The notes: a model not told the origin generated them from the sequence alone. Positions 2,673 through 40,081 are shown, numbered from the stretch's first letter. The stretch is 64,000 nt of DNA from an uncultured Candidatus Saccharibacteria bacterium (GCA_964494105.1 CAZBQI010000003.1:21737-85736); one strand, 5' to 3'. Program-made: numbers and translations.

Positions 2673-3908
2673 ATGTCACTCTTAACAAAATTACTCTTAG
2701 CGAAAGAGCCAACTATCGAGCTAGCCATTAAGCAACTTGAGGATAAAATTGGCCGCAAAGGGGTTGATACCGAACTAATTGGTGAAATTCTGCAAAAAGG
2801 CTTCAATCACGCCGCTCAGCTTGGGCTAGATTCTGACTTTAACGCCAAAGAACTATACTACTCACTTATTAATAGAGTAAAACTTGACGATGAAAGGTTG
2901 GCTCGAGCGATTGGTGGGAAAAACATTGATGATGTGGCCGAGATGATGCCGTTAATTATTAAAAAATTCGAGAGTCTAGATTTACCTCGAAAAGGGTGGT
3001 TTCTAAAAGAATCAATTGCGCGAAAGATGTTAAAAAACCATCCACCGAAAAACATTATGGCGCGATTGGGCTACAAAGATGTAACAGTGATGCTAGAAAA
3101 AGAAAATATTTTCGAAATATTTACGGCTATTCGTTTTGGCGAAAGTGGGGAATGGCTGGATAGCTTTAATCAGCAGTACAAGTCGGTCAAGTTTAAGGAC
3201 TTTGAAAACAGACGAATACATACAGTGGTATACGATTCCAAGAAGTGGGGAGATATTGCCATTCACTTTGTCCAGAAAAAGCTTCACAACATAACTCACA
3301 GCAAAGAACTTGGAGTAATTGTTGCTGTCCCGTTGCCTAAAAAAACAATGCGTGGCATTACACTCAAAGTGCTTCCACTACTTGTACACTACTGCTACGA
3401 AGTACATTTATACAGTGCGTACTTTCATTTAATTTCAGCTCAAAAAGACTTTGGCAAAAGACTTTGTGAGACGTTAATTGCCGATACTGCACGCGTACCG
3501 ATAATTGACGGTCGTCACCATGTTCATTGGCGCGTTATTCAGCGCTACTATGGCAAGCTAAAGGGCGAAGAGCATCCGGAGGTCTTCCAGCCACACGTTC
3601 AGCCAGAGGATCTGCATTGGCGTAAAGCCGAAGACGTACTATACAAGGTTGACCCTGAATTGGATTTTTGGCGAGGTATGGATTATGTGGCGCTGGATAT
3701 TGAAGGTGAGGTAGTGACATTCAACCTTATGGACGTCGAGTTTAATTATTCAAACGGAAACAGTTTTGAAGACCGTAATCTATACCACTTTCGTGAATCG
3801 CTTTGGAATGAACTCTTCGAGCGCTACATGGGGCAAAAAATATTAGAAAAAGAGATCCTGCAACAGCTTGATAACGACCTCATAGCGCCAGAAAGAATCA
3901 AGCTTTAA
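2673..3908 (+). CDS. hypothetical protein (411 aa)
   Basis: Long ORF with coding-like composition and no motif I recognise. A TATACT -10 lies 7 nt upstream of the ATG. Confidence 0.5.
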
Positions 3909-3948: not shown

Positions 3949-5910
3949 ATGCCCAAATTTATACTCAATTCTAAATATGCGCCAACCGGTGATCAGCCGG
4001 ATGCCATTGCCAAACTTACGGCCGGACTTGTCGACGGCAACAAAGAACAAACCTTATTGGGAGTAACCGGCTCCGGCAAAACGTTTACTATGGCGAATTT
4101 GGTTATGAACACGCAGAAGCCCACGCTTGTTATTAGCCACAACAAAACGCTAGCCGCCCAGTTATATAGCGAATTTAAGAGTTTCTTCCCAGATAATGCG
4201 GTCCACTATTTTGTTAGTTATTTCGATTATTATCAACCGGAAGCTTACATTCCGGGTAGCGATACATATATCGAGAAAGATTCTCAGATTAACGACGAGA
4301 TCGATAGGCTTCGACATGCTGCCACCAAGGCTTTGCTAACACGACGCGATGTTTTAATTGTGGCTAGTGTCAGCTGTATTTATGGCCTTGGTTCGGTAGA
4401 AGATTATGCAACATTGGCCATCAAGCTAAAGGCCGGTGAACAGCGCAAACGTGATAAATTCCTGCGCCAATTAACCGACATTCAATACGAACGCAACGAT
4501 GTTGGCTTTGAACGTGGTACTTTTCGAGCTCGTGGTGACATTGTAGATGTGTTCCCTATAGGAGATGACAATGCCTATCGAATTGAATTTTTTGGCGACG
4601 ACCTAGAGAAGATTCGCCCGCTTAATCCTCTTACCGGCGAACTAGAAAAAGAACTCCAGCAAGTAAGTATCTTCCCGGCTAGTCACTACGTAACCCCCGA
4701 AGAAAAACTAAAAAGCGCGGTGGTGAAGATCAAGTCAGAACTAGCCGAGCGCACTACATACTTGAACAAACACAATATGCTGCTCGAGGCGCAAAGGCTC
4801 CAACAACGGACTAAATACGACATTGAAATGATAGAGCAGACAGGTTTCGTGAAGGGAATAGAGAACTATTCTAGGTATTTGACAAACCGAGAGCCGGGTG
4901 ACCAACCAGCAACATTATTAGATTATTTTCCAGATGACGCCCTGTTCTTAATCGATGAAAGTCACATGACTATGCCGCAAATTCGTGGCATGTACAATGG
5001 CGACCGTGCTCGCAAACAGATGTTGGTAGATCACGGATTTCGTTTGCCTAGCGCGCTAGATAACCGCCCGCTAACATTTAGTGAATTTGAATCCCACATA
5101 AGCCAGGTTGTGTATGTATCAGCTACACCGACCGAGTACGAGCTAAATCGGTCGGCCCAGGTGGCCGAGCAAATTATCCGACCCACCGGCTTAATCGATC
5201 CGGTCATTGAAGTGCGCAAAACCGAAGGCCAAGTAGACGATTTAATTGCTGAAATTCGTGATCGAACGAGCAAACAACAACGGGTGCTTGTTACCACCTT
5301 GACCAAAAGAATGTCAGAAGACCTTAAGGATTATCTGGAAGAACTAGGCATCAAGGTTCAATATCTTCACTCGGAAGTTGAGACATTAGAACGTACTGAC
5401 ATATTAAAAGATTTACGGCTTGGCGTATACGATGTGTTGATTGGAATAAATCTATTACGCGAAGGTCTTGATTTGCCAGAGGTGAGTCTGGTGGCAATTC
5501 TTGATGCCGATAAGGAAGGTTTCTTGCGTAGCGAGCAGGCGTTAATTCAGACAATTGGCCGAGCAGCGCGCCATGTAGAAGGTAAGGTAATCATGTATGC
5601 CGATAGAATAACCGGCTCAATGGAACGAGCTATAAGTGAGACCAAGCGTCGCCGTAAAAAACAAAAAGCCTACAACGATGCCCACGGGATAACGCCAGCT
5701 GGTATAACTAAAGCCATCGACGGCGGTTTACGTGATCTCATTCCAAAAGAAGAAAAACCAGGAATTAATTTAAACAAAATACCAAAAACTGAATATGAAC
5801 ATCTTATTAAAGACCTAACGGCGCAAATGGACATGGCATCGGCAAACCTGCAGTTCGAGCATGCTGCCGAGCTTCGTGATCAGATAGCTGAAATTAAAAA
5901 AGCCCTTTAG
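3949..5910 (+). CDS. uvrB: excinuclease ABC subunit B
   Basis: 653 aa. Contains [10 protein letters not shown] Walker A, helicase motifs, and a C-terminal UVR coiled coil ([22 protein letters not shown]). Confidence 0.95.
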
Positions 5911-5959
5911 CTACTGTACTGTATATAAGAGAAGGCATATAATCTGTGCAAGAGATGCT

Positions 5960-7975
5960 ATGCATTATTTTGAAATCTATACAAACAAAGACGAATTAAA
6001 AAAAGAAGACTGGCAAAAGCTTTATACGGTGCTTGGCGCATATATTGGGCTGCTTGGTACCTTCGAGGTTATTGTCAAACTGCAAGATAATCTACTGCGG
6101 TTCTTTATCGCTTCGCAAAAAGATTTAGGCGCTGTGTCAAATAACGTCAAACTCGGCGTACTACAGGCAGTGGAACCAAGGATGGTCGGGTTACCGGAGC
6201 GAGCACACGGGAGAGAACGATTAGTCCGCCTGGTAACGGGAGGTAATATTCTTGCCTTGAAAGAGAAGATTCAGGTTAAGCGTGGCAAAGAGCTGGAATT
6301 CGTGCGAATCAAAATTCGTAGGCTAAATAATGACAAGTCTGTAACGCGAGCGTTTTTTTATTTTAAGGACGCAGCCGGGCAGTGGCAACTTGCTAAGAAG
6401 CTGATGCCAATGTTCCCGGCGCACCTACTAGCTATTGATTTCAAAAAAAGTAGTGGCTATCAGCGCAAATCACAGCCAAAATATTTAAATCTGGAAAAAT
6501 CGCTCCACATGCTTACCGGACAAAGTGATGGCGCACTCTTTCAGGTCGACGCATTCCCTTATTTTAATACGCCATACTATATAAATATTGCCAATTATGA
6601 GTTCGACAAGCACTCATTTATCGTTGGTGCCAGTGGAAGTGGAAAATCAAAATTCATAGAACTATTTGTAAAAACGCTACACGAGAGCCCATATAGAATG
6701 AACTACCGGGTGGTTGTAATCGATCCGCATGCGTCTTTGGGCGAGAGCTGGCATGATTTGCCAGACACAAAAATGATGAGTTTTAGTGATGATACGGCGG
6801 AACTCTTTCCTGGTGCTGGCACCGATATAACTGCCGGCACAGAGCTGACTACCACATTGTTCAAGTCTCTTTTAGCTGACCAGTTTAATCCACGGGCCGA
6901 GCGCGTAATTCGTTTTAGTCTATACGTGCTGATGACGGCACAGGCTATGACATTGTCGAACCTCAAGCGGTTTGTGAGCGATCTTGAGTATCGTGAGCAA
7001 ATTATGAACCATGTCAAAGATCACGTACCACCAAACATAGTCCAGTTCTTTGCCACAGACTTTAATGAGCTACGGACCAAATATCACAACGAATCAATTA
7101 CACCGGTAATTTCGCTGGTAGACGAGATGGAATTACAACCGGCATTTGTAAACCAAGGGGATCAATCACTGGCAAAACTTGTGAATGATAATTTCCTTAC
7201 GCTCTTTTCGCTAAACAAAGTTAGTATGGGCGAGAAAGTGGTAAAAACAGTTGCAGGGTTAATTATCCAGCAAGTCTTTCTATTGGCTCAGGCCAGGGCT
7301 TTTAACCAAAAAGTGATTTTAATCGTTGATGAGGTTTCTGTGGTGCAAAACCCAGCTATTGCGCAAATTTTAGCCGAGGCGCGCAAGTTTAATCTTTCAA
7401 TCTTTTTAACTCAGCAGTACTTTGGGCAAGTTGAAAAAGATTTGCAGGCAGCGATATTTAGTAATGTTATTAACTACTACAGCTTTAAGGTTTCAGAGGA
7501 AGACGCGCGAGTATTAGAAGGTAACCTGAATATTGAATTACCTAAAGAAATCGTTAAAAAAGAACACGACAAAGGTGTGAAAGAGTCGGACTACAAGGTT
7601 AAGATGCTGACGGCTCTTAGCAAGCAGGAGGCTATTGTGCGAATTTCCAGTGAAGGCAAGATTCTGCCGGCCATTAAGGCCAAGACTATGAAAGTTGAAG
7701 TTACAAAAGAGGCTAAGGCCACAGCTGAACAGTTGGTTGAGCTTGCTAAGAGTGCCGAGGGGCAGCATTTACCTGAGAAGTTTGTCGAAAAATCAATTGA
7801 TCAAGCCCCAGCACTACCATTAACCGAACAGCAGCAATCTGTTTCGGCAGTAGTACAGCAAGATGTGCAGCAGGAGCACTATGTGCCTGCTGCACAACCA
7901 GTCTCAAGCCAACCTACAAACTTGTCGGAGCTGTTGGCCCAGCATTCATCAAGTAGAGATAAACAAAAGGAGTAG
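5960..7975 (+). CDS. FtsK/HerA/VirB4-superfamily (DUF87-like) P-loop ATPase with Q-rich disordered C-terminal tail
   Basis: 671 aa. Walker A IVGASGSGKSKF, then the VVIDPHASLGESW 'DPHGEY'-like motif. Walker B VILIVDEVSVV. ARKFNLSIFLTQQ matches the (A/G)RKYG...TQ sensor motif of HerA/VirB4/TraG ATPases. An N-terminal domain of about 220 aa precedes the P-loop. Confidence 0.6.
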   Translation: MHYFEIYTNKDELKKEDWQKLYTVLGAYIGLLGTFEVIVKLQDNLLRFFIASQKDLGAVSNNVKLGVLQAVEPRMVGLPERAHGRERLVRLVTGGNILALKEKIQVKRGKELEFVRIKIRRLNNDKSVTRAFFYFKDAAGQWQLAKKLMPMFPAHLLAIDFKKSSGYQRKSQPKYLNLEKSLHMLTGQSDGALFQVDAFPYFNTPYYINIANYEFDKHSFIVGASGSGKSKFIELFVKTLHESPYRMNYRVVVIDPHASLGESWHDLPDTKMMSFSDDTAELFPGAGTDITAGTELTTTLFKSLLADQFNPRAERVIRFSLYVLMTAQAMTLSNLKRFVSDLEYREQIMNHVKDHVPPNIVQFFATDFNELRTKYHNESITPVISLVDEMELQPAFVNQGDQSLAKLVNDNFLTLFSLNKVSMGEKVVKTVAGLIIQQVFLLAQARAFNQKVILIVDEVSVVQNPAIAQILAEARKFNLSIFLTQQYFGQVEKDLQAAIFSNVINYYSFKVSEEDARVLEGNLNIELPKEIVKKEHDKGVKESDYKVKMLTALSKQEAIVRISSEGKILPAIKAKTMKVEVTKEAKATAEQLVELAKSAEGQHLPEKFVEKSIDQAPALPLTEQQQSVSAVVQQDVQQEHYVPAAQPVSSQPTNLSELLAQHSSSRDKQKE

Positions 7976-7977
7976 TT

Positions 7978-8673
7978 ATGGACGAAACGGCAAAACAAAT
8001 TATCGATCAAATAGTTGGACAGGTATTTGGCTACCAAAATCCCTTTACGCTTGATCAGTTTCGCCAAAAATTTGCTTTTGATGTACGTTTGCCAAGCCAA
8101 GTAAGTGACAGTACAACCGGTCAATCCACATGGGCTTCATCAATAAACCCACAGAAGTTTATGACAATGGAAAACGCGCGCAAGCGGGTAGAAGTAGATG
8201 ACTTTATGCCCAAGCCTCGGCCTCTGAATAGCATTCAAGACATGCTTTCAGCTTGGGAAGAGATAAACTACACCTCAACTGAACGACAAATTGATTCTAC
8301 AAAAGTGGGTGGTAGTGACTGTGTTTATAACTCAGAAGATGTTTATTATTCGCAAGATATTCGCCGTTCAAAGCACATAGTTTTTTCTGATAACACTGAA
8401 GAATGTGAATACGTAGTGGCCTCACAACGATCACTCACTTCAACCTATTGCATTAAGCTCGATGACAGTAAAGAATGCTCGAAAAGTTTTCAAGTTTCAT
8501 GGAGCGCCAAAGTAGCCAGCAGTATGTTTATTCATGATTGCTACGATATTTATGAGTGCATGTTTTGCTCGCACATTAGCTCAAAGAAATTTTGCATAGC
8601 AAATATGCAGTTTAGCGAAGAGGACTACAAAAGCTTAAAGCCGATGGTAGTGCAGTGGGTGCTTACACAGTAG
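7978..8673 (+). CDS. Cys-rich hypothetical protein, translationally coupled to the upstream ATPase
   Basis: 231 aa. Eight Cys in the C-terminal ~110 aa, including CMFCSH. The ATG lies 2 nt after the ATPase TAG stop. No recognisable domain. Confidence 0.5.
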   Translation: MDETAKQIIDQIVGQVFGYQNPFTLDQFRQKFAFDVRLPSQVSDSTTGQSTWASSINPQKFMTMENARKRVEVDDFMPKPRPLNSIQDMLSAWEEINYTSTERQIDSTKVGGSDCVYNSEDVYYSQDIRRSKHIVFSDNTEECEYVVASQRSLTSTYCIKLDDSKECSKSFQVSWSAKVASSMFIHDCYDIYECMFCSHISSKKFCIANMQFSEEDYKSLKPMVVQWVLTQ

Positions 8674-8674
8674 C

Positions 8675-9883
8675 TCAGGCCGCAACAAGCATATGTGGTC
8701 GAACTGTCCCATCGCTATTCACAAACGTATAGCCTTCGCTGGTATGGCCGGCTTGTGCTTGGCCAGTCTCTGTAATTTGATCATAAACTCGAAGTAGTCT
8801 ATCCATCATTTTATGATAACGAACAAGCTTCATGTGGCCTTCGTCTCCATATACAGCAAGATGTGAATTTGGCACTCGCCTAATAAAATCACGCAGAATT
8901 GCCTGTTGTGGTGCCACGTGATCTTTTTCACCGGCAATTATTTCGTGAGGGATGTCGCCGTATGCCTCGACTTCGTCCGACCCGATGGATTCATGGCTAA
9001 TCATAACTCCGAGTTTAAGTAAGGCTGCCAGCTCCTCAGGCTTAGCTGGCAGAGTTTCCAACAGTACTTTCAAGAAGTAGGGTAGCTTTTCTGGAGGGGT
9101 ACTAACTATTGACTCAACCAAATACATAAATTCTGGTAATCCAAAATCTTTGCCGAGCCCGAATAGCGACTCTTCTTCAATTCCGGCTGGTGAAATTTGT
9201 ATATCTCCAATTATTTTGATGCCATCAAAGCCGGCAGCATTTGCAGCTTGAAGGCCGCGTCTGGCGAAGATTGTACCCATTGATTCGCTGGCGAGTACAT
9301 ATTTATGCGGTAGGTCTGACCTGTTTGCCACTACCTCAGCAACAGCCTCTAGTCTGCGCAAGCCCAAGTCTGCAAAACTCACTTCATTATCTGTATACCA
9401 TTTTAACGACGGAGGTACTGTGTCAATGGCTTCTGTTCCCATGCCGATTATGGTAATACCAGGTCTGTTGCTTGAAACTTCGCCAAGACTTGCGCGAATC
9501 ATACCGCTGCGCAGACGCGTGCCCCAAGGATTAAGCCATAGAATTCCCGGCTGATCAGGATCTCCAGGCAAAACCATTACATCCCGTTGAATTCCGTCTG
9601 ATCCCTCAATATAGTTCCTTTTGCCGTCGACTATGTCTTTGAAAGCGGTAGATTCTGCTGAGGGATCACTGCTAATAAGCTGGTGCACCCCTCGTACAAA
9701 ATCAGCCTGACTCCTATATGGATGACGCAGCAAATGCAGACCGTTTTCTACAACGCTACTGCCCATTGCAATTGCTCCTAGTAGTAATTGGTGAGGCGGC
9801 ACAGGATGGTCAGATTGAAATTCGAACGCCGGATCAAATGATTCAGCGCCGGTATCTGTGCCGGGCGAAGCAACTGAAGTCAT
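8675..9883 (-). CDS. alpha/beta-hydrolase-fold protein (hypothetical)
   Basis: 402 aa. Putative nucleophile elbow S-E-S-M-G (VLASESMGT), with later Asp/His candidates (GDEGHMK). Convergent with the ATPase pair and visibly richer in Gly/Pro/Arg codons than its neighbours. Confidence 0.4.
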   Translation of the reverse strand: MTSVASPGTDTGAESFDPAFEFQSDHPVPPHQLLLGAIAMGSSVVENGLHLLRHPYRSQADFVRGVHQLISSDPSAESTAFKDIVDGKRNYIEGSDGIQRDVMVLPGDPDQPGILWLNPWGTRLRSGMIRASLGEVSSNRPGITIIGMGTEAIDTVPPSLKWYTDNEVSFADLGLRRLEAVAEVVANRSDLPHKYVLASESMGTIFARRGLQAANAAGFDGIKIIGDIQISPAGIEEESLFGLGKDFGLPEFMYLVESIVSTPPEKLPYFLKVLLETLPAKPEELAALLKLGVMISHESIGSDEVEAYGDIPHEIIAGEKDHVAPQQAILRDFIRRVPNSHLAVYGDEGHMKLVRYHKMMDRLLRVYDQITETGQAQAGHTSEGYTFVNSDGTVRPHMLVAA

Positions 9884-9999: not shown

Positions 10000-10290
10000 A
10001 TGGCAAAAATATCAAATGACTCAGCAAGTAAATTAGCCAAGCTTGCGCGACTGGCTATCACTGCTCGGCAAGCTAAGAAAATATCCGCAGAATTAGAAGC
10101 TATCCTTAACTATGTTGAACAGCTGGGTAAACTAGACGTTAGTAGCATCAATGAAGTTAGTCAGGTTACCGGTCTTGAAGATGTTTGGCGATCAGATACT
10201 GTCAAGCCTTCAAAGATTTCTCAGACGGACTTACTAGCGAATGCGCCGGCAATTGAAAATGGCTACATTAAAGTCAGGCGAGTATTGTAG
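10000..10290 (+). CDS. gatC: Asp-tRNA(Asn)/Glu-tRNA(Gln) amidotransferase subunit C
   Basis: 96 aa with typical GatC size and sequence (LAKLARL...LEAILNYVEQL...). Immediately precedes gatA and gatB. Confidence 0.85.
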   Translation: MAKISNDSASKLAKLARLAITARQAKKISAELEAILNYVEQLGKLDVSSINEVSQVTGLEDVWRSDTVKPSKISQTDLLANAPAIENGYIKVRRVL

Positions 10291-26654: not shown

Positions 26655-29384
26655 ATGAGTGGAATAGAAAGTGCGCACGCAGAGTCCGCAACATCAGCTG
26701 GCATTAATAGAGCTTATGCCTCGGAGTTTGTTTTAACCCTGAGTGATGCCAAATGCCAAGATACAGAATTGGCGGGTGGAAAAGCGGCAAACTTATCGAT
26801 ATTAGTGCGAAACGGAGTGGATGTGCCCGAAGGTTTCGTGCTTACGACCGAAGCATACGATGTGATCACAAGGGATCCTTATTATTATGATCTGGGAATA
26901 GCGTACGATATGTTGTCAGGCACTAGCTATGTCTCAAACGGCAATACAGAAGGCAAAGAGCCAAGTGGACAGATGCTTGATATATTGGAAGAAGCATCCA
27001 GAGCTGCGAATTACTTTGAGGATGCAATAGCATTGCGAAGCTCAGCAACAGTTGAGGACGGATCAAGAACAAGTCTTGCAGGTGTATTTGATACGCATTA
27101 TGTCAATAGAGAATCTGCTAGTACACCTGGCTTGGTAATGAATACTATTCTAGGGATATATAAACAAGCTCAATCAGAAACAACTCGGCGGGCATTGATT
27201 GAGCACGGAATTAATCCTGATGATTTAAAAATGGCAATAATTATTCAACGCTTGGTAAAGGCTGAATACTCTGGTGTTATGTATACAAGAGCGAGTGGAG
27301 ATGGTCGCTTGGTTCAGTACACTCAAGGAATGGGGGATCGTTTGGTAGACGGGGTTACTACAGGTACTTCGATCATCATAGAACCCGAAACTGGTGTAAT
27401 CACTCGTTCATTTGATTTTGAATCACGTGCCATGCCACGTGAAAACGTGAAGGAGTTAGAAAGGGTTGCCTCAGAAGTCGAGTCAGTTTTTGGCGGCACA
27501 CCTCAGGATGTTGAATTCGCTATCGATGAGCGACGCAGTGTAAAAGTTGTTCAGTCCAGACCAATGACACGAGAAGTAGAAGGTATCTCTCAGGAAATTA
27601 CGACACTCGAAGCGGTTGATATGATCAAGGCTCGAGCTGAGGCAGTTATGCAACATGAGATGTCTAGGCTGAAGACTCAAAATTCTATTCTATTTCAAGC
27701 TAACTTTTCCGAATTACTGCCAAACCCGTCACCAATGGACGTTGGGGTGTTCCAGTACATTTTCCCTGGCAGGGACGAGGTAGATGGAGCAATTCAGATT
27801 GGGCGTCGTGACATGGGGTACCCATTAAAAGATGGTTCCACTGGTTACTTGCATTATATTGGTGGCAGAGCTTACGAGAGTTTAGCTGGCGACGCACTAA
27901 CCTATTTTGGAGGATTTCCTGAGAGTGAAGCGGAGTATGTAGAAACGCTCGTAGCTGAGTATTTGAGAAAAGTACAAGAAGACCCAGATCTTGCTTCCTA
28001 CCCGGAGATGGGATTATACCTGCAGGATCCTACTCTAGAAGATTTGCAAACAAGATACGGTGATCGCGCACCAAAACTCTTTGATGTCTATCATCAACTC
28101 AGACAAAAGCTCAAGTACTCGGCAGAAGTGTTTAAGGATAATTTTGGGCAGACTGGAAATATTGAAAACGAACAGTTTATCGAATCGTTGTCAGATCAGG
28201 AACTTGACGAGCTTGACGATGATGCACTGCTATATTCCACAGTCCTGATATTGGAGCATTTGAGACAAAAATCATGTGTAGACTTTGTTCATGCAGCTAG
28301 ACTTGGCTTCTACTATACCCAAAGACTTCAATCATTTCTCGCCGATACACTTGGTTTAGCACCTGATGAAATGCAAGAGACACTAGCAACTTTAGGCCAA
28401 GGCCTCGAAGGCAGTAGTGTAACAGAAACTAACATAGCAATTAGTGAAGCAGATGATCTGGATACTGCTCTAGCGATAGCAAGACAAAGGATATCTCATT
28501 ATCCCGCGATTGGAGAAATGTTAGAAATTAGGCATCCTAGACTTAGTGAGGACCCCGATGCATTGCGGGCATATGTTGAGGAGATACGAATTAATAGAGA
28601 CTTTAGGTTTAAACATGAGGCGCAGACGAAAGAGCGCAGAGTAGCGGAGCAATCATTAACTGAGATGCTACCTCTAGAACTACAAGCTGAATTTAGAGAA
28701 GTAGCAAAAAACGCGCAAACTTACATGGCTTTGCGAGAAACCATAAAGGACCAATTTGGTCGTGAGTACGGTCTACTAAGGGAGAGATTAGTTGAAATCG
28801 AATCACGCTTGGGTATTGTGCCAGAGGGGATTTTTTATCTTTATCCGCGAGAACTACCCGAAGTTATGCTCGATCCCAGTTCGTACTATCATATAATCGA
28901 AGCGCGCAAAGCCGAATTTACAGCTTTTCAGAAGGTGAGTATGCCTACGGTGATCACTCCGAGTAGCATTAGTTCTATAGAAGTTGGCGTAAGTAATAAT
29001 AGAAAGTTAGTCGAAGAAAAAGGCAGGTTTCTTTCGCACGGCACTGCTGTTCAGGGGGTAGTTATTAAGTTAGATGACTATGGTGAACTCGAGGATGACC
29101 CACAACACACAAGGGCTGCTTTACATCAGAGGATTCAAGAACTGAAAGGCAAAGGAGTAAAAGTAATTCTAGCTGCGCGTCAGGTTAATCTTACCGATGA
29201 CCCACTTATCAATCTCGCAGATGGTTTAATATTGCAGAAAGCGGGCATTGTATCTCATGGGGCTCAAAGGGCTCGTGAACTTGGGATAGGCGCACTATCT
29301 GGTATAGATATATCTATAATAGATTCTGGTATGAAGATAATATTTGATCCGCATAACAGAATGGTAAGGAGGATTGATGAGTAG
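26655..29384 (+). CDS. PEP-utilising-enzyme-family phosphotransferase with rifampin-phosphotransferase-like architecture (N-terminal ATP-grasp/PPDK_N domain, C-terminal mobile His domain)
   Basis: 909 aa. N-terminus has GGKAANL and RSSATVEDG. The extreme C-terminus has GIVSHGAQRARELGIGALSGI (swivelling phospho-His motif). No C-terminal PEP-binding TIM barrel, so not a bona fide PpsA. Confidence 0.65.
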   Translation: MSGIESAHAESATSAGINRAYASEFVLTLSDAKCQDTELAGGKAANLSILVRNGVDVPEGFVLTTEAYDVITRDPYYYDLGIAYDMLSGTSYVSNGNTEGKEPSGQMLDILEEASRAANYFEDAIALRSSATVEDGSRTSLAGVFDTHYVNRESASTPGLVMNTILGIYKQAQSETTRRALIEHGINPDDLKMAIIIQRLVKAEYSGVMYTRASGDGRLVQYTQGMGDRLVDGVTTGTSIIIEPETGVITRSFDFESRAMPRENVKELERVASEVESVFGGTPQDVEFAIDERRSVKVVQSRPMTREVEGISQEITTLEAVDMIKARAEAVMQHEMSRLKTQNSILFQANFSELLPNPSPMDVGVFQYIFPGRDEVDGAIQIGRRDMGYPLKDGSTGYLHYIGGRAYESLAGDALTYFGGFPESEAEYVETLVAEYLRKVQEDPDLASYPEMGLYLQDPTLEDLQTRYGDRAPKLFDVYHQLRQKLKYSAEVFKDNFGQTGNIENEQFIESLSDQELDELDDDALLYSTVLILEHLRQKSCVDFVHAARLGFYYTQRLQSFLADTLGLAPDEMQETLATLGQGLEGSSVTETNIAISEADDLDTALAIARQRISHYPAIGEMLEIRHPRLSEDPDALRAYVEEIRINRDFRFKHEAQTKERRVAEQSLTEMLPLELQAEFREVAKNAQTYMALRETIKDQFGREYGLLRERLVEIESRLGIVPEGIFYLYPRELPEVMLDPSSYYHIIEARKAEFTAFQKVSMPTVITPSSISSIEVGVSNNRKLVEEKGRFLSHGTAVQGVVIKLDDYGELEDDPQHTRAALHQRIQELKGKGVKVILAARQVNLTDDPLINLADGLILQKAGIVSHGAQRARELGIGALSGIDISIIDSGMKIIFDPHNRMVRRIDE

Positions 29385-29988
29385 AGTGACTTTTCTGCGT
29401 CATGGTATTCTTCAGAATCCATATAACGACTATACTCAACTAACATTAATGCAGCTAAATGAATTAGCCGAGCAGAAAACACAGCCACATATCAACCAGG
29501 CGCAATCAACGCATCTTATCAGCAAAAAAATTGAAAGTCTCAAAAGTATAGAAGCTATTTACTGTGCCACTAATCGTCGTTCGGCTGAGACAGCTGCCTT
29601 ACTAGCACAGAGCTTAAATAAGCCATTTCCAATAGAAGCAACAGCATTATTAAATGAAATTGTTTTTAGCCCAGCTAAGATGATAGCTGAAGCTCAGTAT
29701 AAATTAGCAGGCATGGATGCAATTAGGGAGAGTTTATTTATGTCTATAGTCTCAGGGGACGGCAAAGCTGAAAGCCTGAGCGATATTTACAATCGGGTCA
29801 ATAGAATAGATGGTTTAATTAAAAAATCTAGATACGGGGATGTGCTTGTTGTAACGCATGGATTCTTAATGCGCTTTTTACAGGTACATTATTTACAAGA
29901 ACAAGTAAATTTTATGCATATAAAAGCAGAAGATATCGCACAACAGAAAAATTACTATTATTTAGATGGCTTTACTACAAAAATATAG
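29377..29988 (+). CDS. histidine phosphatase superfamily protein (phosphoglycerate-mutase-like)
   Basis: FLRHG (RHG catalytic His), RRSAETA and VVTHG motifs. AAGGAGG RBS. Overlaps the upstream gene by 8 nt. Confidence 0.7.
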   Translation: MSRVTFLRHGILQNPYNDYTQLTLMQLNELAEQKTQPHINQAQSTHLISKKIESLKSIEAIYCATNRRSAETAALLAQSLNKPFPIEATALLNEIVFSPAKMIAEAQYKLAGMDAIRESLFMSIVSGDGKAESLSDIYNRVNRIDGLIKKSRYGDVLVVTHGFLMRFLQVHYLQEQVNFMHIKAEDIAQQKNYYYLDGFTTKI

Positions 29989-37139: not shown

Positions 37140-38309
37140 ATGGCTCGTGTTAGCATTTCTGAATACCGAGCAAAAAAGCTGCTACTTGGTGATGATTACG
37201 TGGGTTGGCAGTTAAGCGTCAAGAATGCTCGAGCCATAATTTCCAAGCTTCCACGAACAGCAACATATGTAGTTAAAGTTGATCAGGGTGTAAAGAAACG
37301 TTTCAAGCAGGGATTGCTTTCTGTAAATGTTGCCAAAGATCAGTTAGAAAGACATATTAAAAACTATGCCGCCAAAGGGTACGGACAGTTTTTAATAGAG
37401 ACGTACATACCGCACTTGCAAACGGCCGAACGCTACCTTTCGCTCGAGCGAGTGCGCCAAGGCATCAAGATATTATATTCGCTTAAAGGTGGCGTTGATA
37501 TCGAAGACAGTAGCGATTCCGTTTTGCAGGCTACTTATAGTGGTAAGCAAGTGATTCTGGAGGATATTGAGCGCGCATTAGAGGTAGAAACCGGATTTTT
37601 AGCGGGCATTGTCGATAAAATGAACGCACTACACATTAGTTTTATAGAAATTAACCCTTTGCTTGTTGTTGAGAGAAAGCCAATTCTGCTAGATTGTGCA
37701 ACTATGGTAGATTCTACCGCCAGTTGGTTTGTTGGTGGCGAATGGAGCGAGGATGATCTAATAGAGAGCGGCGGTGGTAACCCGCAGGAATTAGCTGTTC
37801 GCGAATTAAGCAAAAACTCTCCTTCGTCACTAACATTACGAGTGCTCAATCCGGATGGTTCGTTGTTTATGTTGCTCTCTGGTGGAGGCGCTAGTATCGC
37901 TTTGGCAGATGAAGCCTTTAACCTTGGCTTTGGAGCGCAAATTGCTAATTACGGGGAATATAGCGGCAACCCAACGCTAGAGGAAACTTATCTGTATACC
38001 AAACAAATTTTAAGCTTGTTACTAGAATCGGAGACTAAAAAGAAAGCTCTGGTAATCGCCGGCGGTGTAGCCAACTTTACCGACGTTTCTGCTACCTTTA
38101 AGGGGATAATTCAAGCGCTGGATGAGTGTAAAACCAAGTTAAAGAATCAGAAAATTAAAGTCTACGTGCGCCGGGGCGGGCCTAATGAGGCCAAGGGCTT
38201 GGCGATGATGAAAGATTTCTTGGAACACGCCGGCATTTTAGGCTCGGTAGCAGGCTCCGAGGAGCTCTTGGTAACACCGGTACGCGCGGCAGTAGCGAGT
38301 ATTAAATGA
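37140..38309 (+). CDS. aclB: ATP-citrate lyase beta-type subunit (ATP-grasp; AclB-like)
   Basis: 389 aa. FIEINPL, LNPDGSLFMLLSGGGASI, ANYGEYSGNPT, TFKGI and VYVRRGGPN align closely with motifs of the ATP-grasp half of ATP-citrate lyase (LEINPL, LNPKGRIW..GGGASV, ANYGEYSGAPSE, TFKGI, VRRGGPN). Confidence 0.7.
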   Translation: MARVSISEYRAKKLLLGDDYVGWQLSVKNARAIISKLPRTATYVVKVDQGVKKRFKQGLLSVNVAKDQLERHIKNYAAKGYGQFLIETYIPHLQTAERYLSLERVRQGIKILYSLKGGVDIEDSSDSVLQATYSGKQVILEDIERALEVETGFLAGIVDKMNALHISFIEINPLLVVERKPILLDCATMVDSTASWFVGGEWSEDDLIESGGGNPQELAVRELSKNSPSSLTLRVLNPDGSLFMLLSGGGASIALADEAFNLGFGAQIANYGEYSGNPTLEETYLYTKQILSLLLESETKKKALVIAGGVANFTDVSATFKGIIQALDECKTKLKNQKIKVYVRRGGPNEAKGLAMMKDFLEHAGILGSVAGSEELLVTPVRAAVASIK

Positions 38310-40081
38310 TAAACGTATCAGCCCTTCGCAAAGCCAAAAAAGGTATAGTAACGCTAGGGAGCCATCCTGGCATTATTCAGTCTATTTTAGACTTCGATTA
38401 TCTTAGCGGTGAAAGCGATCCTAGTGTGGTCGCTATTATTACCGCTAGTGCCAAAACGCAAAAATACTTTTGGGGGAATAGGGAGGTGCTGATTCCGTGC
38501 TATCCGCGGCTCGCGAGTATTCCCCGCGATAAAAAAGCCAATGTGAATCTGGCTATAAATTTAAATTCAGCCCGCCGAGTTTACGATTCAACTGTAGAAT
38601 TGTTTGAATTGTTTCCCGAAGCCTTTGGAGTACATATTTTTGCCGAGGATGTACCTGAACTGGCAGCTATCGAACTTTTTAATGCTTACCAAAAGAAGCA
38701 TTTTATTGTGGGCCCTTCAGGGGTTGGATTGGTTATAGCAAATTCCCTCAAGCTTGGTGCTGTCGGTGGGACTGACTATCAGCAGTTGCTAAAGTCTCAC
38801 TTATTTACCGAGGGCAATACGGCAGTTCTTTCGGCCTCGGGTGGCATGATAAACGAAATCATCAGGATGGTGGCAAATGGAGGCAAGCGAGTCTCGTTTG
38901 CTCTTACCCTTGGCGGGGATCGCTTTCCAGTTACGGCCCCCCTAGAAGCATTTCTGGCAGCCGAAGCCGACACGCAGACTGATCAGATTGTGTACTACGG
39001 CGAACTAGGTGGGTACGACGAATATGACCTAGTTGAGCTAATAAAAGCTAAGGAAGTTACCAAGCCGGTTGTCGCCTACATCGCGGGTAGTATTGCCGAG
39101 CAGTTCGACACGCCAGTGCAATTTGGCCATGCTAAAGCGCTCGCTGGCAACAAAAGCGAATCTGCTAGTGCCAAGCGGGCAGCGCTCGCGGAAGTTGGCG
39201 TGCAAGTTGCAGATTCACTCGAAAGCTTCCATACTTTAATAAGTAAGATGAAGAAACCAAACAATCCTGATCCAGAGGTAGATGCGGGTGAACTTAGCGG
39301 TCGTCGCAAAAGTTTGTTTAGTACTCAAATTGGGCGCGAGTCCGAGACTGGCTATGAATTTAGTGGCAAGTCGCTTGAAGCTTGGGAGCGCCGGGGCGAC
39401 TTTATAGCTATGGTGCTGGCTGGACTGCTTGGACGCCCGGCAAAATCGAAGCTACTAGAGGAATTCACCAAGACTGTGTTTATTTTGGGTCTAGACCATG
39501 GCCCGCAGGTTTCAGGAGCGCTAAATACCATTATTACTGCCCGCGCTGGCAAAGATATGGTGTCCTCATTAAGCGCTGGGTTATTGGCAATTGGCCCCCG
39601 CTTTGGTGGCGCTGGTAACGAGGCAGCGGGCAATTGGTTTGAAGGTGCAACATCGGGGGTAGAAGCCAGTGAGTTTGTAGAGAACTTAGCCAAGCAGAAG
39701 AAGCTAATTCTTGGCATTGGTCACAAGAAATATCGCCTTGGCTACCCAGACCCACGCGTTGTACGCTTGCTTGCCTTTGCCAAGCAATTAAAAGCTCATC
39801 GCTACCTGGATTTTGCCCAGGCAGTAGAGGATATTACAACCTCTAAAAAGGGTAATCTGATCTTAAATTTTGACGGAGCATTTGCAGCGATTCTTTTAGA
39901 TATTTTAGAGCTAGAAGAAAAGATGAGTGAAGATGAGATAAAAGAACTTATAGATGCCGAGTTTTTCAACGCATTCTTTGTAATTCCACGTTCAGTGGGC
40001 TTTGTTAGCCACTTCCTCGACCAAAAACGGCTTGATGAAGGCCTTTTCCGACTGCCTGACGAGTTATTGTACGCAAATTAA
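38306..40081 (+). CDS. aclA: ATP-citrate lyase alpha-type subunit (CoA-binding, phospho-His and citrate-synthase-like domains; AclA-like)
   Basis: 591 aa. QFGHAKA matches the catalytic phospho-His loop QFGHAG of ACL. GIGHKKYRLGYPDPRV and ITTSKKGNLILNFDGA match GIGHRVKS..PD.RV and ITTSKKPNLILNVDG. ATGA overlap with aclB. Confidence 0.75.
   Translation: MINVSALRKAKKGIVTLGSHPGIIQSILDFDYLSGESDPSVVAIITASAKTQKYFWGNREVLIPCYPRLASIPRDKKANVNLAINLNSARRVYDSTVELFELFPEAFGVHIFAEDVPELAAIELFNAYQKKHFIVGPSGVGLVIANSLKLGAVGGTDYQQLLKSHLFTEGNTAVLSASGGMINEIIRMVANGGKRVSFALTLGGDRFPVTAPLEAFLAAEADTQTDQIVYYGELGGYDEYDLVELIKAKEVTKPVVAYIAGSIAEQFDTPVQFGHAKALAGNKSESASAKRAALAEVGVQVADSLESFHTLISKMKKPNNPDPEVDAGELSGRRKSLFSTQIGRESETGYEFSGKSLEAWERRGDFIAMVLAGLLGRPAKSKLLEEFTKTVFILGLDHGPQVSGALNTIITARAGKDMVSSLSAGLLAIGPRFGGAGNEAAGNWFEGATSGVEASEFVENLAKQKKLILGIGHKKYRLGYPDPRVVRLLAFAKQLKAHRYLDFAQAVEDITTSKKGNLILNFDGAFAAILLDILELEEKMSEDEIKELIDAEFFNAFFVIPRSVGFVSHFLDQKRLDEGLFRLPDELLYAN

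Follow-up and report, generated by a model that had tools for sequence, protein, structure and literature searches.

An FtsK-HerA superfamily ATPase and a predicted solenoid partner of a new family form a conserved gene module in Saccharibacteria, gut Bacillota and Micrarchaeota-type archaea

A 64,000-nt stretch of DNA from an uncultured Candidatus Saccharibacteria bacterium (GCA_964494105.1, CAZBQI010000003.1:21737-85736; hereafter the window, with positions counted from its first nucleotide) carries three genes between uvrB (3949-5910, + strand) and the gatCAB operon (gatC at 10000-10290, + strand, followed by gatA and gatB). They encode a 671-aa ATPase (5960-7975, + strand), a 231-aa partner protein, CysP (7978-8673, + strand), and, convergently, a 402-aa open reading frame (ORF) (8675-9883, - strand); uvrB and gatCAB are flanking housekeeping genes. 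A sequence-only reading had described the three as an accessory island and had proposed a role in anti-phage defence. The ORF map and a motif search placed the genes, the ATPase motifs and the coupling junction where that reading had put them. Comparison with related loci led to a different picture: the ATPase and CysP constitute one conserved, chromosomally inherited two-gene module, to which the third gene does not belong.

The locus and its two proteins

The ATPase contains GASGSGKS (Walker A, aa 223-230, nt 6626-6649), VVIDPH (aa 252-257), ILIVDE (Walker B, aa 453-458, nt 7316-7333) and ARKFNLSIFLTQQ (the ARKFN...QQ sensor/Arg region, aa 474-486, nt 7379-7417); these and all features of the two proteins given below lie on the + strand. 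In an alignment of 32 sequences, G223, S225-K231, D457 and E458 were invariant, as were R475 and K476 past Walker B. An AlphaFold2 model built from 32 homologues (mean predicted local distance difference test score, pLDDT, 69) showed an N-terminal domain (aa 1-170, 5960-6469), a RecA-like core (aa 216-580, 6605-7699) with an all-alpha insertion between Walker A and Walker B (aa 290-391, nt 6827-7132), a disordered Q-rich linker (aa 581-652) and a short C-terminal helix, the linker and the C-terminal motif together covering 7700-7972.

The N-terminal domain anticipated from the sequence is real (pLDDT 80-90 over residues 1-165), but the HAS-barrel likeness attributed to it could not be established; in the model, it is made up of two alpha/beta subdomains with no fold match. 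The domain is strongly basic (charge +13.8, isoelectric point (pI) 10) and is basic across lineages, with median charges of +7 in Saccharibacteria, +12.5 in Bacillota and +5.5 in archaeal homologues; the latter keep the domain, their tblastn alignment beginning at query residue 25. The disorder expected of the Q-rich tail was reproduced, pLDDT falling below 50 over residues 607-652. The protein ends in a conserved motif that had escaped notice, NLSELLAQHSSSRDKQKE (aa 654-671, nt 7919-7972), in which S663 is invariant and L659, S664, S665 and R666 are nearly so. Bacillota homologues end alike, with L..LL..SSSR and a Lys-rich end.

Pfam matched the ATPase with DUF87/HerA-central and TrwB_AAD_bind, each just over cut-off (PF10412, 30.2 bits against 20.5), and scans with NCBIfam and PADLOC gave far-sub-threshold matches at the P-loop level only; the sequence search for relatives of solved structure likewise returned nothing but P-loop-level matches (HerA). 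The core superposed on solved members of the FtsK-HerA superfamily; fold comparison gave 25.3 for the VirB4 C-terminal domain, 24.5 for the DptH/DndH C-domain, 22.3 for HerA, 21.4 for TrwB and 17.6-19.8 for defence-type HerA proteins. Walker motifs and fold superposition thus agree with the initial placement of the protein in the HerA/VirB4 clade, and its assignment to the VirB4/HerA/TrwB clade of the FtsK-HerA superfamily is solid, with no subfamily favoured. No membrane segment was detected; the maximum hydropathy (Kyte-Doolittle, 19 residues) was 1.72, in a predicted soluble helix/strand region. Probably, the protein is a soluble, predicted ring-forming nucleoside triphosphatase of the VirB4/HerA/TrwB/DptH clade.

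We read CysP as consisting of a highly conserved N-terminal alpha/beta domain (aa 1-102, 7978-8283; AlphaFold2 pLDDT about 60-87) with the aligned motifs GQxFGYQNP...AFDVRLP...TW, a hexad/dodecad repeat region (aa 105-212, 8290-8613) that includes a conserved ECMFCSH motif (nt 8554-8574), and a C-terminal helix (aa 213-231, 8614-8670) in which W227 and L229 are invariant. Mean column identity among 31 Saccharibacteria homologues was 66%. Over residues 105-212, autocorrelation peaked at lags 6, 12, 18 and 24: for hydrophobicity, lags 6 and 12 gave 0.33 and 0.51; for small-residue occupancy, lags 6, 12 and 18 gave 0.39, 0.35 and 0.32. No periodicity appeared in the autocorrelation of residues 1-100. 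From this pattern we infer, with moderate strength, that the repeat region forms a beta-solenoid with a Ser/Cys ladder. The protein of the window is acidic (pI 4.96), bacterial forms having a charge of about -8, and the archaeal paralogues described below are not (median charges +0.4 to +3).

As first supposed, the partner falls in no described family: Pfam, NCBIfam, PADLOC and PDB sequences yielded no match, and Foldseek of the model against the PDB returned nothing at E < 1, the N-domain included. The epithet 'Cys-rich' applies modestly, there being 8 Cys in the protein, of which C197 and C206 alone are invariant among the 31 Saccharibacteria homologues. For the same reason, and with the ladder being mostly an alternation of Cys and Ser, a zinc finger or metal cluster was rejected; a metal role is conceivable for the Cys-richer forms of Bacillota and archaea. 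The motif in a 2026 preprint on 'cysteine-rich repeats' is different and secreted, and is unrelated to the partner. A viral family, phrog_15341, weakly matched the solenoid region in two relatives (locus L015, 9995-10693, 2.6e-5; protein P0303, aa 393-482, 1.8e-3), a similarity that may reflect the Cys-repeat pattern instead of homology.

At the junction of the two genes (7967-7980, + strand), AAGGAG (7967-7972) falls inside the last codons of the ATPase gene, followed by its stop codon TAG (7973-7975), a 2-nt gap and the partner ATG (7978-7980). Translational coupling is plausible from this arrangement. uvrB and the ATPase gene are separated by 49 nt (5911-5959, + strand), in which a TATAAT hexamer, spotted by eye, lies at 5938-5943. 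A scan of this spacer for the sigma-70 consensus called no site; the hexamer makes a promoter here possible.

Linkage of the ATPase and partner genes in bacteria and archaea

At 90% identity, homologues of the ATPase group into more than 1,200 clusters, and so do those of the partner; most clusters share 55-60% identity with the query. When one genome per GTDB species was scanned, within the bounds of the search patterns, 80 bacterial loci emerged, and in 79 of these tblastn placed the ATPase gene immediately 5' of the partner gene. This constancy of order bears out the earlier suggestion that the ATPase is functionally paired with its downstream neighbour. About 14 of the loci belong to Saccharibacteria or Patescibacteria (partner 50-62% identical) and about 65 to uncultured gut Bacillota with small genomes, under labels such as Bacilli, Tenericutes and Erysipelotrichaceae (partner 43-48%, ATPase 33-39% identical). 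Linkage also shows in the tightly coupled start/stop junction of the window and in the pairwise distance matrices of the two proteins, which correlate at r = 0.95 overall and within Bacillota, and at 0.75 within Saccharibacteria. Between phyla the partner is more conserved than the ATPase (52% against 63% divergence), which suggests that it may have many constrained surfaces. In the literature, we found no description of the pairing or of the partner family.

The same pairing was seen in four more distant loci. In L165 and L166, an AraC-GyrI regulator gene precedes the ATPase and partner genes on a 449-kb contig; in L167, a MerR-family regulator gene lies next to the pair and rpoBC adjoins; in L169, the pair is followed by a gene for a TraG-D_C-type ATPase. 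The contig of L165/L166 also carries biosynthetic and transport genes, which tempered a 'reduced-genome symbiont signature' that we had considered. The additional ATPase of L169 (3830-6067, directly past the pair) is a 745-aa protein resembling type IV coupling proteins, with DUF8128, TrwB_AAD_bind and TraG-D_C domains, similar to Southlakia's 'orphan' coupling protein SEML1_0293; this is a single case.

Regulators recur beside the pair. A gene for a fusion of AraC HTH_18 with a GyrI-like/Cass2 domain lies directly 5' of it in 54 Bacillota loci as well as in L165/L166, and an HTH_10 gene was found in archaeal clusters. AraC proteins with GyrI-like/Cass2-type sensors usually answer to small molecules, so in those Bacillota the function would be inducible rather than constitutive housekeeping. 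This suggests an inducible, stress- or xenobiotic-linked role of the Bacillota operon.

A profile search with the partner against 1.84 billion representative proteins retrieved 1,328 relatives. Among them is a large family of about 525-530 aa that contains the partner module twice, by internal duplication; the Pfam scan assigned none of these duplicated proteins to a family, and they too had no relatives among PDB sequences. Two are annotated Candidatus Micrarchaeota in NCBI, and one 246-aa relative is annotated Candidatus Dojkabacteria. We fetched 80 metagenomic loci for the duplicated family, in which the partner hidden Markov model (HMM) matched 182 proteins. In 20 of the 80, a homologue of the ATPase (with HMM E-values from 1e-61 to 1e-56 across the four loci examined in detail) adjoins a tandem array of 1-8 partner paralogues, often convergently; most loci have 1-20 nt between ATPase gene and array, 19 of the 20 have no more than 286 nt, and the remaining one (L143) has about 1.5 kb. 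The array of L111 comprises seven paralogues and that of L117 eight; a further locus, L168, has seven in tandem, each of about 240 aa. Paralogues within an array are 38-43% identical, and the halves of duplicated forms about 30%. The array loci also contain HTH_10 and Lrp/AsnC regulators, which fit an archaeal origin.

Linkage of the ATPase to the partner family spans both prokaryotic domains. Its depth and repetition make the strongest case for joint action of the ATPase and the solenoid family.

Two further observations concern the archaeal contigs. Solitary duplicated paralogues lie far from any ATPase gene in L110, L141, L152, L155 and L159 (each at about 8000-9600), so that, on the same large contigs, the family has scattered members besides the clustered ones. 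In several archaeal loci, the ATPase gene adjoins a gene, sometimes multicopy, for a PALP (pyridoxal phosphate-dependent) enzyme with a C-terminal membrane or Cys-containing region (L105, 13289-14821; L139, 3867-5327; L140, 14866-16356; L143, 10407-11879 and 13972-15627).

The uvrB-gatC junction and the convergent ORF

The window's own clade (L014, L161 and L162/L163) keeps the order uvrB, ATPase, partner, convergent ORF, gatCAB, and uvrB lies upstream of the pair only in this clade. The L014 uvrB is 74% identical and in the same position, and Pfam UvrB domains were detected in the L161 and L162 orthologues. Identity to L014 is 58% for the ATPase and 50% for the partner, against 58% for GatA and 48% for GatB; the pair thus evolves at housekeeping rates. 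In other Saccharibacteria, its neighbours are genes for valyl-tRNA synthetase, YchF, SmpB, P-type ATPases and PolA, and the genomic context differs between families. Synteny with uvrB is accordingly conserved across the clade and not universal.

In Southlakia epibionticum ML1, the junction holds uvrB (SEML1_0540), a hypothetical gene, a branching-enzyme-like gene and gatCAB, without the pair, and the sole PF10412/PF01935 protein of that strain is a non-essential 921-aa paralogue of different architecture (PMC10633639). The content of the uvrB-gatC junction therefore varies among Saccharibacteria, a point that the comparison proposed by the sequence-only reading was meant to test, and the pair is widespread and stably inherited within clades without being universal. 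The closest relatives of the window, L162 and L163 (partner 90% identical), carry an insertion here, a WhiB-like gene for 234 aa (Pfam Whib, 5.8e-7) that separates uvrB from the ATPase gene (L162, 5222-5926; L163, 1728-2432) and is absent from the window; the junction evidently accepts small insertions.

The term 'accessory island' could not be maintained in view of the conservation in more than 1,200 clusters each, the clade-wide synteny, the housekeeping-like divergence and the native composition of the pair in G+C content (GC), G+C content at third codon positions (GC3) and codon usage. No partner homologue was found in 72,556 plasmids, 50,697 phages or IMG/VR; these empty searches and the native composition ruled out a mobile element. 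No type IV secretion system (T4SS) or relaxase genes were present among the large ORFs scanned at 20-43 kb of the window or among 137 neighbours in related loci, which agrees with the earlier statement that T4SS partners are missing and excludes a conjugation remnant in the regions scanned. The same 137 neighbours gave generic P-loop, PolA, AAA and ABC matches only in the PADLOC scan and were not enriched in defence genes. The module does not qualify as a mobile element, nor is a defence island recognisable.

The convergent ORF does not share the history of the pair. It has two homologues in 5.8 billion proteins (100% and 82% identity), is missing beside the pair in at least 75 other loci and never accompanies it outside its own clade; the grouping of three genes into one unit was therefore abandoned. 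The ORFs in its place in L161 (428 aa) and L014 (326 aa) can hardly be aligned with it, an elbow-like motif being common to them. The assignment to alpha/beta hydrolases is weakened: a SESMG elbow-like motif is present (aa 199-203, nt 9275-9289, - strand), with DH/GH motifs past it as read by eye, but the ORF itself matched nothing in Pfam, NCBIfam or PADLOC, and the L014 counterpart reached Hydrolase_4 (E 1.5e-4, 21.5 bits against a cut-off of 27) and Abhydrolase_1 below threshold. It had also been called compositionally distinct; its GC of 0.473 (GC3 0.390) is within the range of housekeeping genes of the window (gatA 0.468, atpA 0.477). We read it as a fast-evolving, clade-specific gene that is at this site by chance.

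The scanned remainder of the window consists of housekeeping genes (pepN, nusA, F-ATPase genes, clpB and others). Judged by the names that homologues bear, the organism belongs to Saccharibacteria/Saccharimonadales. Directly 5' of uvrB there is a 411-aa ORF (2673-3908, + strand) without a Pfam or NCBIfam family; it occupies the same position in L014 (50% identity), L161 and L162 and is a conserved hypothetical gene of the clade. At 26655-29988 (+ strand), a gene for a 909-aa PPDK_N/PEP-utilizer protein is followed by one for a histidine-phosphatase-family protein, which may be a kinase/phosphatase-type pair. Two adjacent genes at 37140-40081 (+ strand) encode ATP-citrate-lyase-type domains (Citrate_bind with an ATP-grasp N-domain, then CoA-ligase with a Citrate_synt C-domain), an unexpected gene pair for a metabolically reduced Saccharibacterium.

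Possible functions and comparison with known systems

We tentatively favour, at somewhat less than even confidence, a model in which the ATPase acts directly on the solenoid proteins of the partner family as its clients, to assemble, disassemble or translocate them. The ATPase would recognise the conserved N-terminal domain of the clients and spend ATP on putting together, taking apart or moving their beta-solenoid bodies, itself bringing a basic N-domain and a flexible tail that ends in the conserved SSSR and polybasic motif. Bacteria would have one client for each ATPase, and Micrarchaeota-type archaea several paralogous clients. The many paralogues per ATPase fit a client or subunit relation better than that of an effector or regulator. 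Also in favour of the model are the constant linkage in bacteria and its archaeal extension, the lack of a membrane segment, the conservation of the partner between phyla, the regulators beside the pair, and the signs that the pair is neither mobile nor defensive.

Several points weigh against this model. The basic N-domain and the polybasic tail of the ATPase would suit nucleic-acid binding equally well. No membrane channel or export component is linked to the pair in the regions examined, so that 'translocation' would have no destination. The fold assignment of the partner solenoid, with a pLDDT of 40-57, rests mainly on the periodicity of its sequence. The correlation between ATPase and partner distance matrices is in part shared species history. 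Finally, the apparent absence of the pair from Southlakia ML1 makes it dispensable for at least one Saccharibacterium.

The foremost alternative, clearly less probable, is that the pair acts on nucleic acids in the manner of HerA-NurA, DptH or Ced: a ring ATPase would translocate on DNA in repair or stress tolerance, with the acidic solenoid as a regulator, a DNA mimic or a non-canonical effector. The closest folds of the ATPase include the DNA translocases/helicases HerA and TrwB as well as DptH, its N-domain is basic in all lineages and its C-terminal end polybasic. The partner is acidic in bacteria (about -8), and DNA-mimicking pentapeptide-repeat solenoids are likewise acidic; the archaeal paralogues, however, are not. 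The pair is co-directional with and 3' of uvrB in the window's clade, and GyrI-like sensor regulators lie 5' of it in Bacillota, but the adjacency to uvrB is limited to that one clade. Moreover, up to 8 partner paralogues per ATPase would be odd for a regulator or effector, and no nuclease or other catalytic domain was found in the partner (Pfam, NCBIfam, PADLOC, PDB, Foldseek).

Anti-phage or anti-plasmid defence by a HerA-type ATPase with an effector, as originally proposed, appears improbable. PADLOC-DB v2 did match the ATPase weakly (mad8, 6.9e-11; HerA, 8.6e-6), the uvrB-gatC junction of this genome differs from that of Southlakia in presence of the pair, and contexts vary among Saccharibacteria. 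These PADLOC matches cover the P-loop core only, and NCBIfam HerA_antiphage (NF042943) scored 16.6 bits against a cut-off of 800. Membership of MADS through mad8 was rejected, there being no other mad genes and no function assigned to mad8 in the MADS paper. Neither the partner nor the 402-aa ORF matched a defence model in PADLOC, which, together with the generic matches among the housekeeping-type neighbours, eliminated a known defence system. The high conservation in step with housekeeping genes, the absence from plasmids, phages and viral contigs, the native composition and the dedicated small-molecule-type regulators, unusual for defence systems, point in the same direction.

In the Candidate Phyla Radiation (CPR), VirD4-like ATPases are nearly universal (5,713 homologues in 2,918 genomes), mostly far from virB4 and possibly exapted (bioRxiv 10.1101/2025.01.22.634366), a count that may or may not include the present ATPase, and the Southlakia T4SS cluster has no recognisable coupling protein (PMC10633639). 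A role of the ATPase as orphan type IV coupling protein, passing the partner or DNA to a Patescibacteria T4SS encoded elsewhere, would accord with these reports, with the TrwB_AAD_bind match over cut-off, with the all-alpha insertion placed as in TrwB and with the TraG-D_C-type ATPase adjoining the L169 pair, but is still less probable than defence, given an ATPase without N-terminal membrane anchor or TraG-D_C domain, a pair that occurs in gut Bacillota and archaea with no T4SS genes in the regions examined, and a partner conserved far above what is typical of secreted effectors.

Returning to the client model, a wider form of it is possible, though it must be put more cautiously: Patescibacteria, small-genome Bacillota and DPANN Micrarchaeota may have in common an ATP-driven system in which a new Ser/Cys-laddered solenoid family, expanded in Micrarchaeota to arrays of up to eight paralogues, is assembled, remodelled or exported by a soluble VirB4/HerA-like motor. 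If so, this would be an intracellular filament or cargo machine and no variant of T4SS, HerA-NurA or known defence. Retention of the pair in the tiny genomes of ultra-small organisms, at 55-60% identity over more than 1,000 clusters, implies that it likely does something important. The Saccharibacteria pair, the regulated Bacillota pair and the Micrarchaeota arrays offer three independent handles on an ATPase-client system, and the genetic tractability of Saccharibacteria makes the question directly testable. The results also bear on the role of the 'orphan VirD4-like' ATPases of CPR, at least the present subfamily of which appears soluble and has a dedicated partner.

Among known systems, the closest in fold is VirB4, with 13% sequence identity to the ATPase in the C-terminal ATPase domain (Thermoanaerobacter VirB4, PDB 4ag5). 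Unlike VirB4/TraC, the present ATPase has no VirB4 N-terminal domain, no CagE/TrbE/VirB4 family match and no VirB3/6/8 neighbours, and its paralogous neighbours are cytoplasmic-looking solenoids of about 250 or 530 aa, not pilins. With TrwB/VirD4 it shares the PF10412 match and the all-alpha insertion in the nucleotide-binding domain; it differs in being soluble without a transmembrane anchor, in lacking TraG-D_C (PF12696) and a relaxase/T4SS context, and in having a unique basic N-domain and a solenoid partner. TIGR TraD models scored about 19 bits against cut-offs of 366-521.

HerA helicases are set apart by the HerA_antiphage score given above and by the HAS barrel, which was not demonstrated in the N-domain of the ATPase. 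In contrast to the partners in HerA-NurA, Nezha HerA-Sir2, HerA-DUF4297, TdpAB and DptH of DndFGH, the partner here is not a nuclease or NADase, with no catalytic domain detected, and the context is not a defence island. We know of no multi-paralogue partner arrays in such HerA-plus-partner systems. The analogy to type VII secretion, in which EccC/EssC is combined with arrays of small paralogous substrates, goes no further than that: the ATPase here has a single ATPase domain, no membrane domain and no other type VII components, and the clients would be solenoids rather than WXG100 helical hairpins.

The partner shows hexad periodicity over aa 105-212 like hexapeptide-repeat proteins, and its fold, assigned at low confidence, invites comparison with left-handed beta-helix hexapeptide enzymes, insect antifreeze beta-helices, curli CsgA, bactofilin and pentapeptide DNA mimics. 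It matched none of the Pfam Hexapep, bactofilin or pentapeptide families, and is distinguished from all of these proteins by its own N-domain and its linkage to an ATPase. Within the 'HerA/VirB4-clade ATPase plus partner' theme, the pair is an uncharacterised form whose partner family is new and whose phylogenetic spread is unusual.

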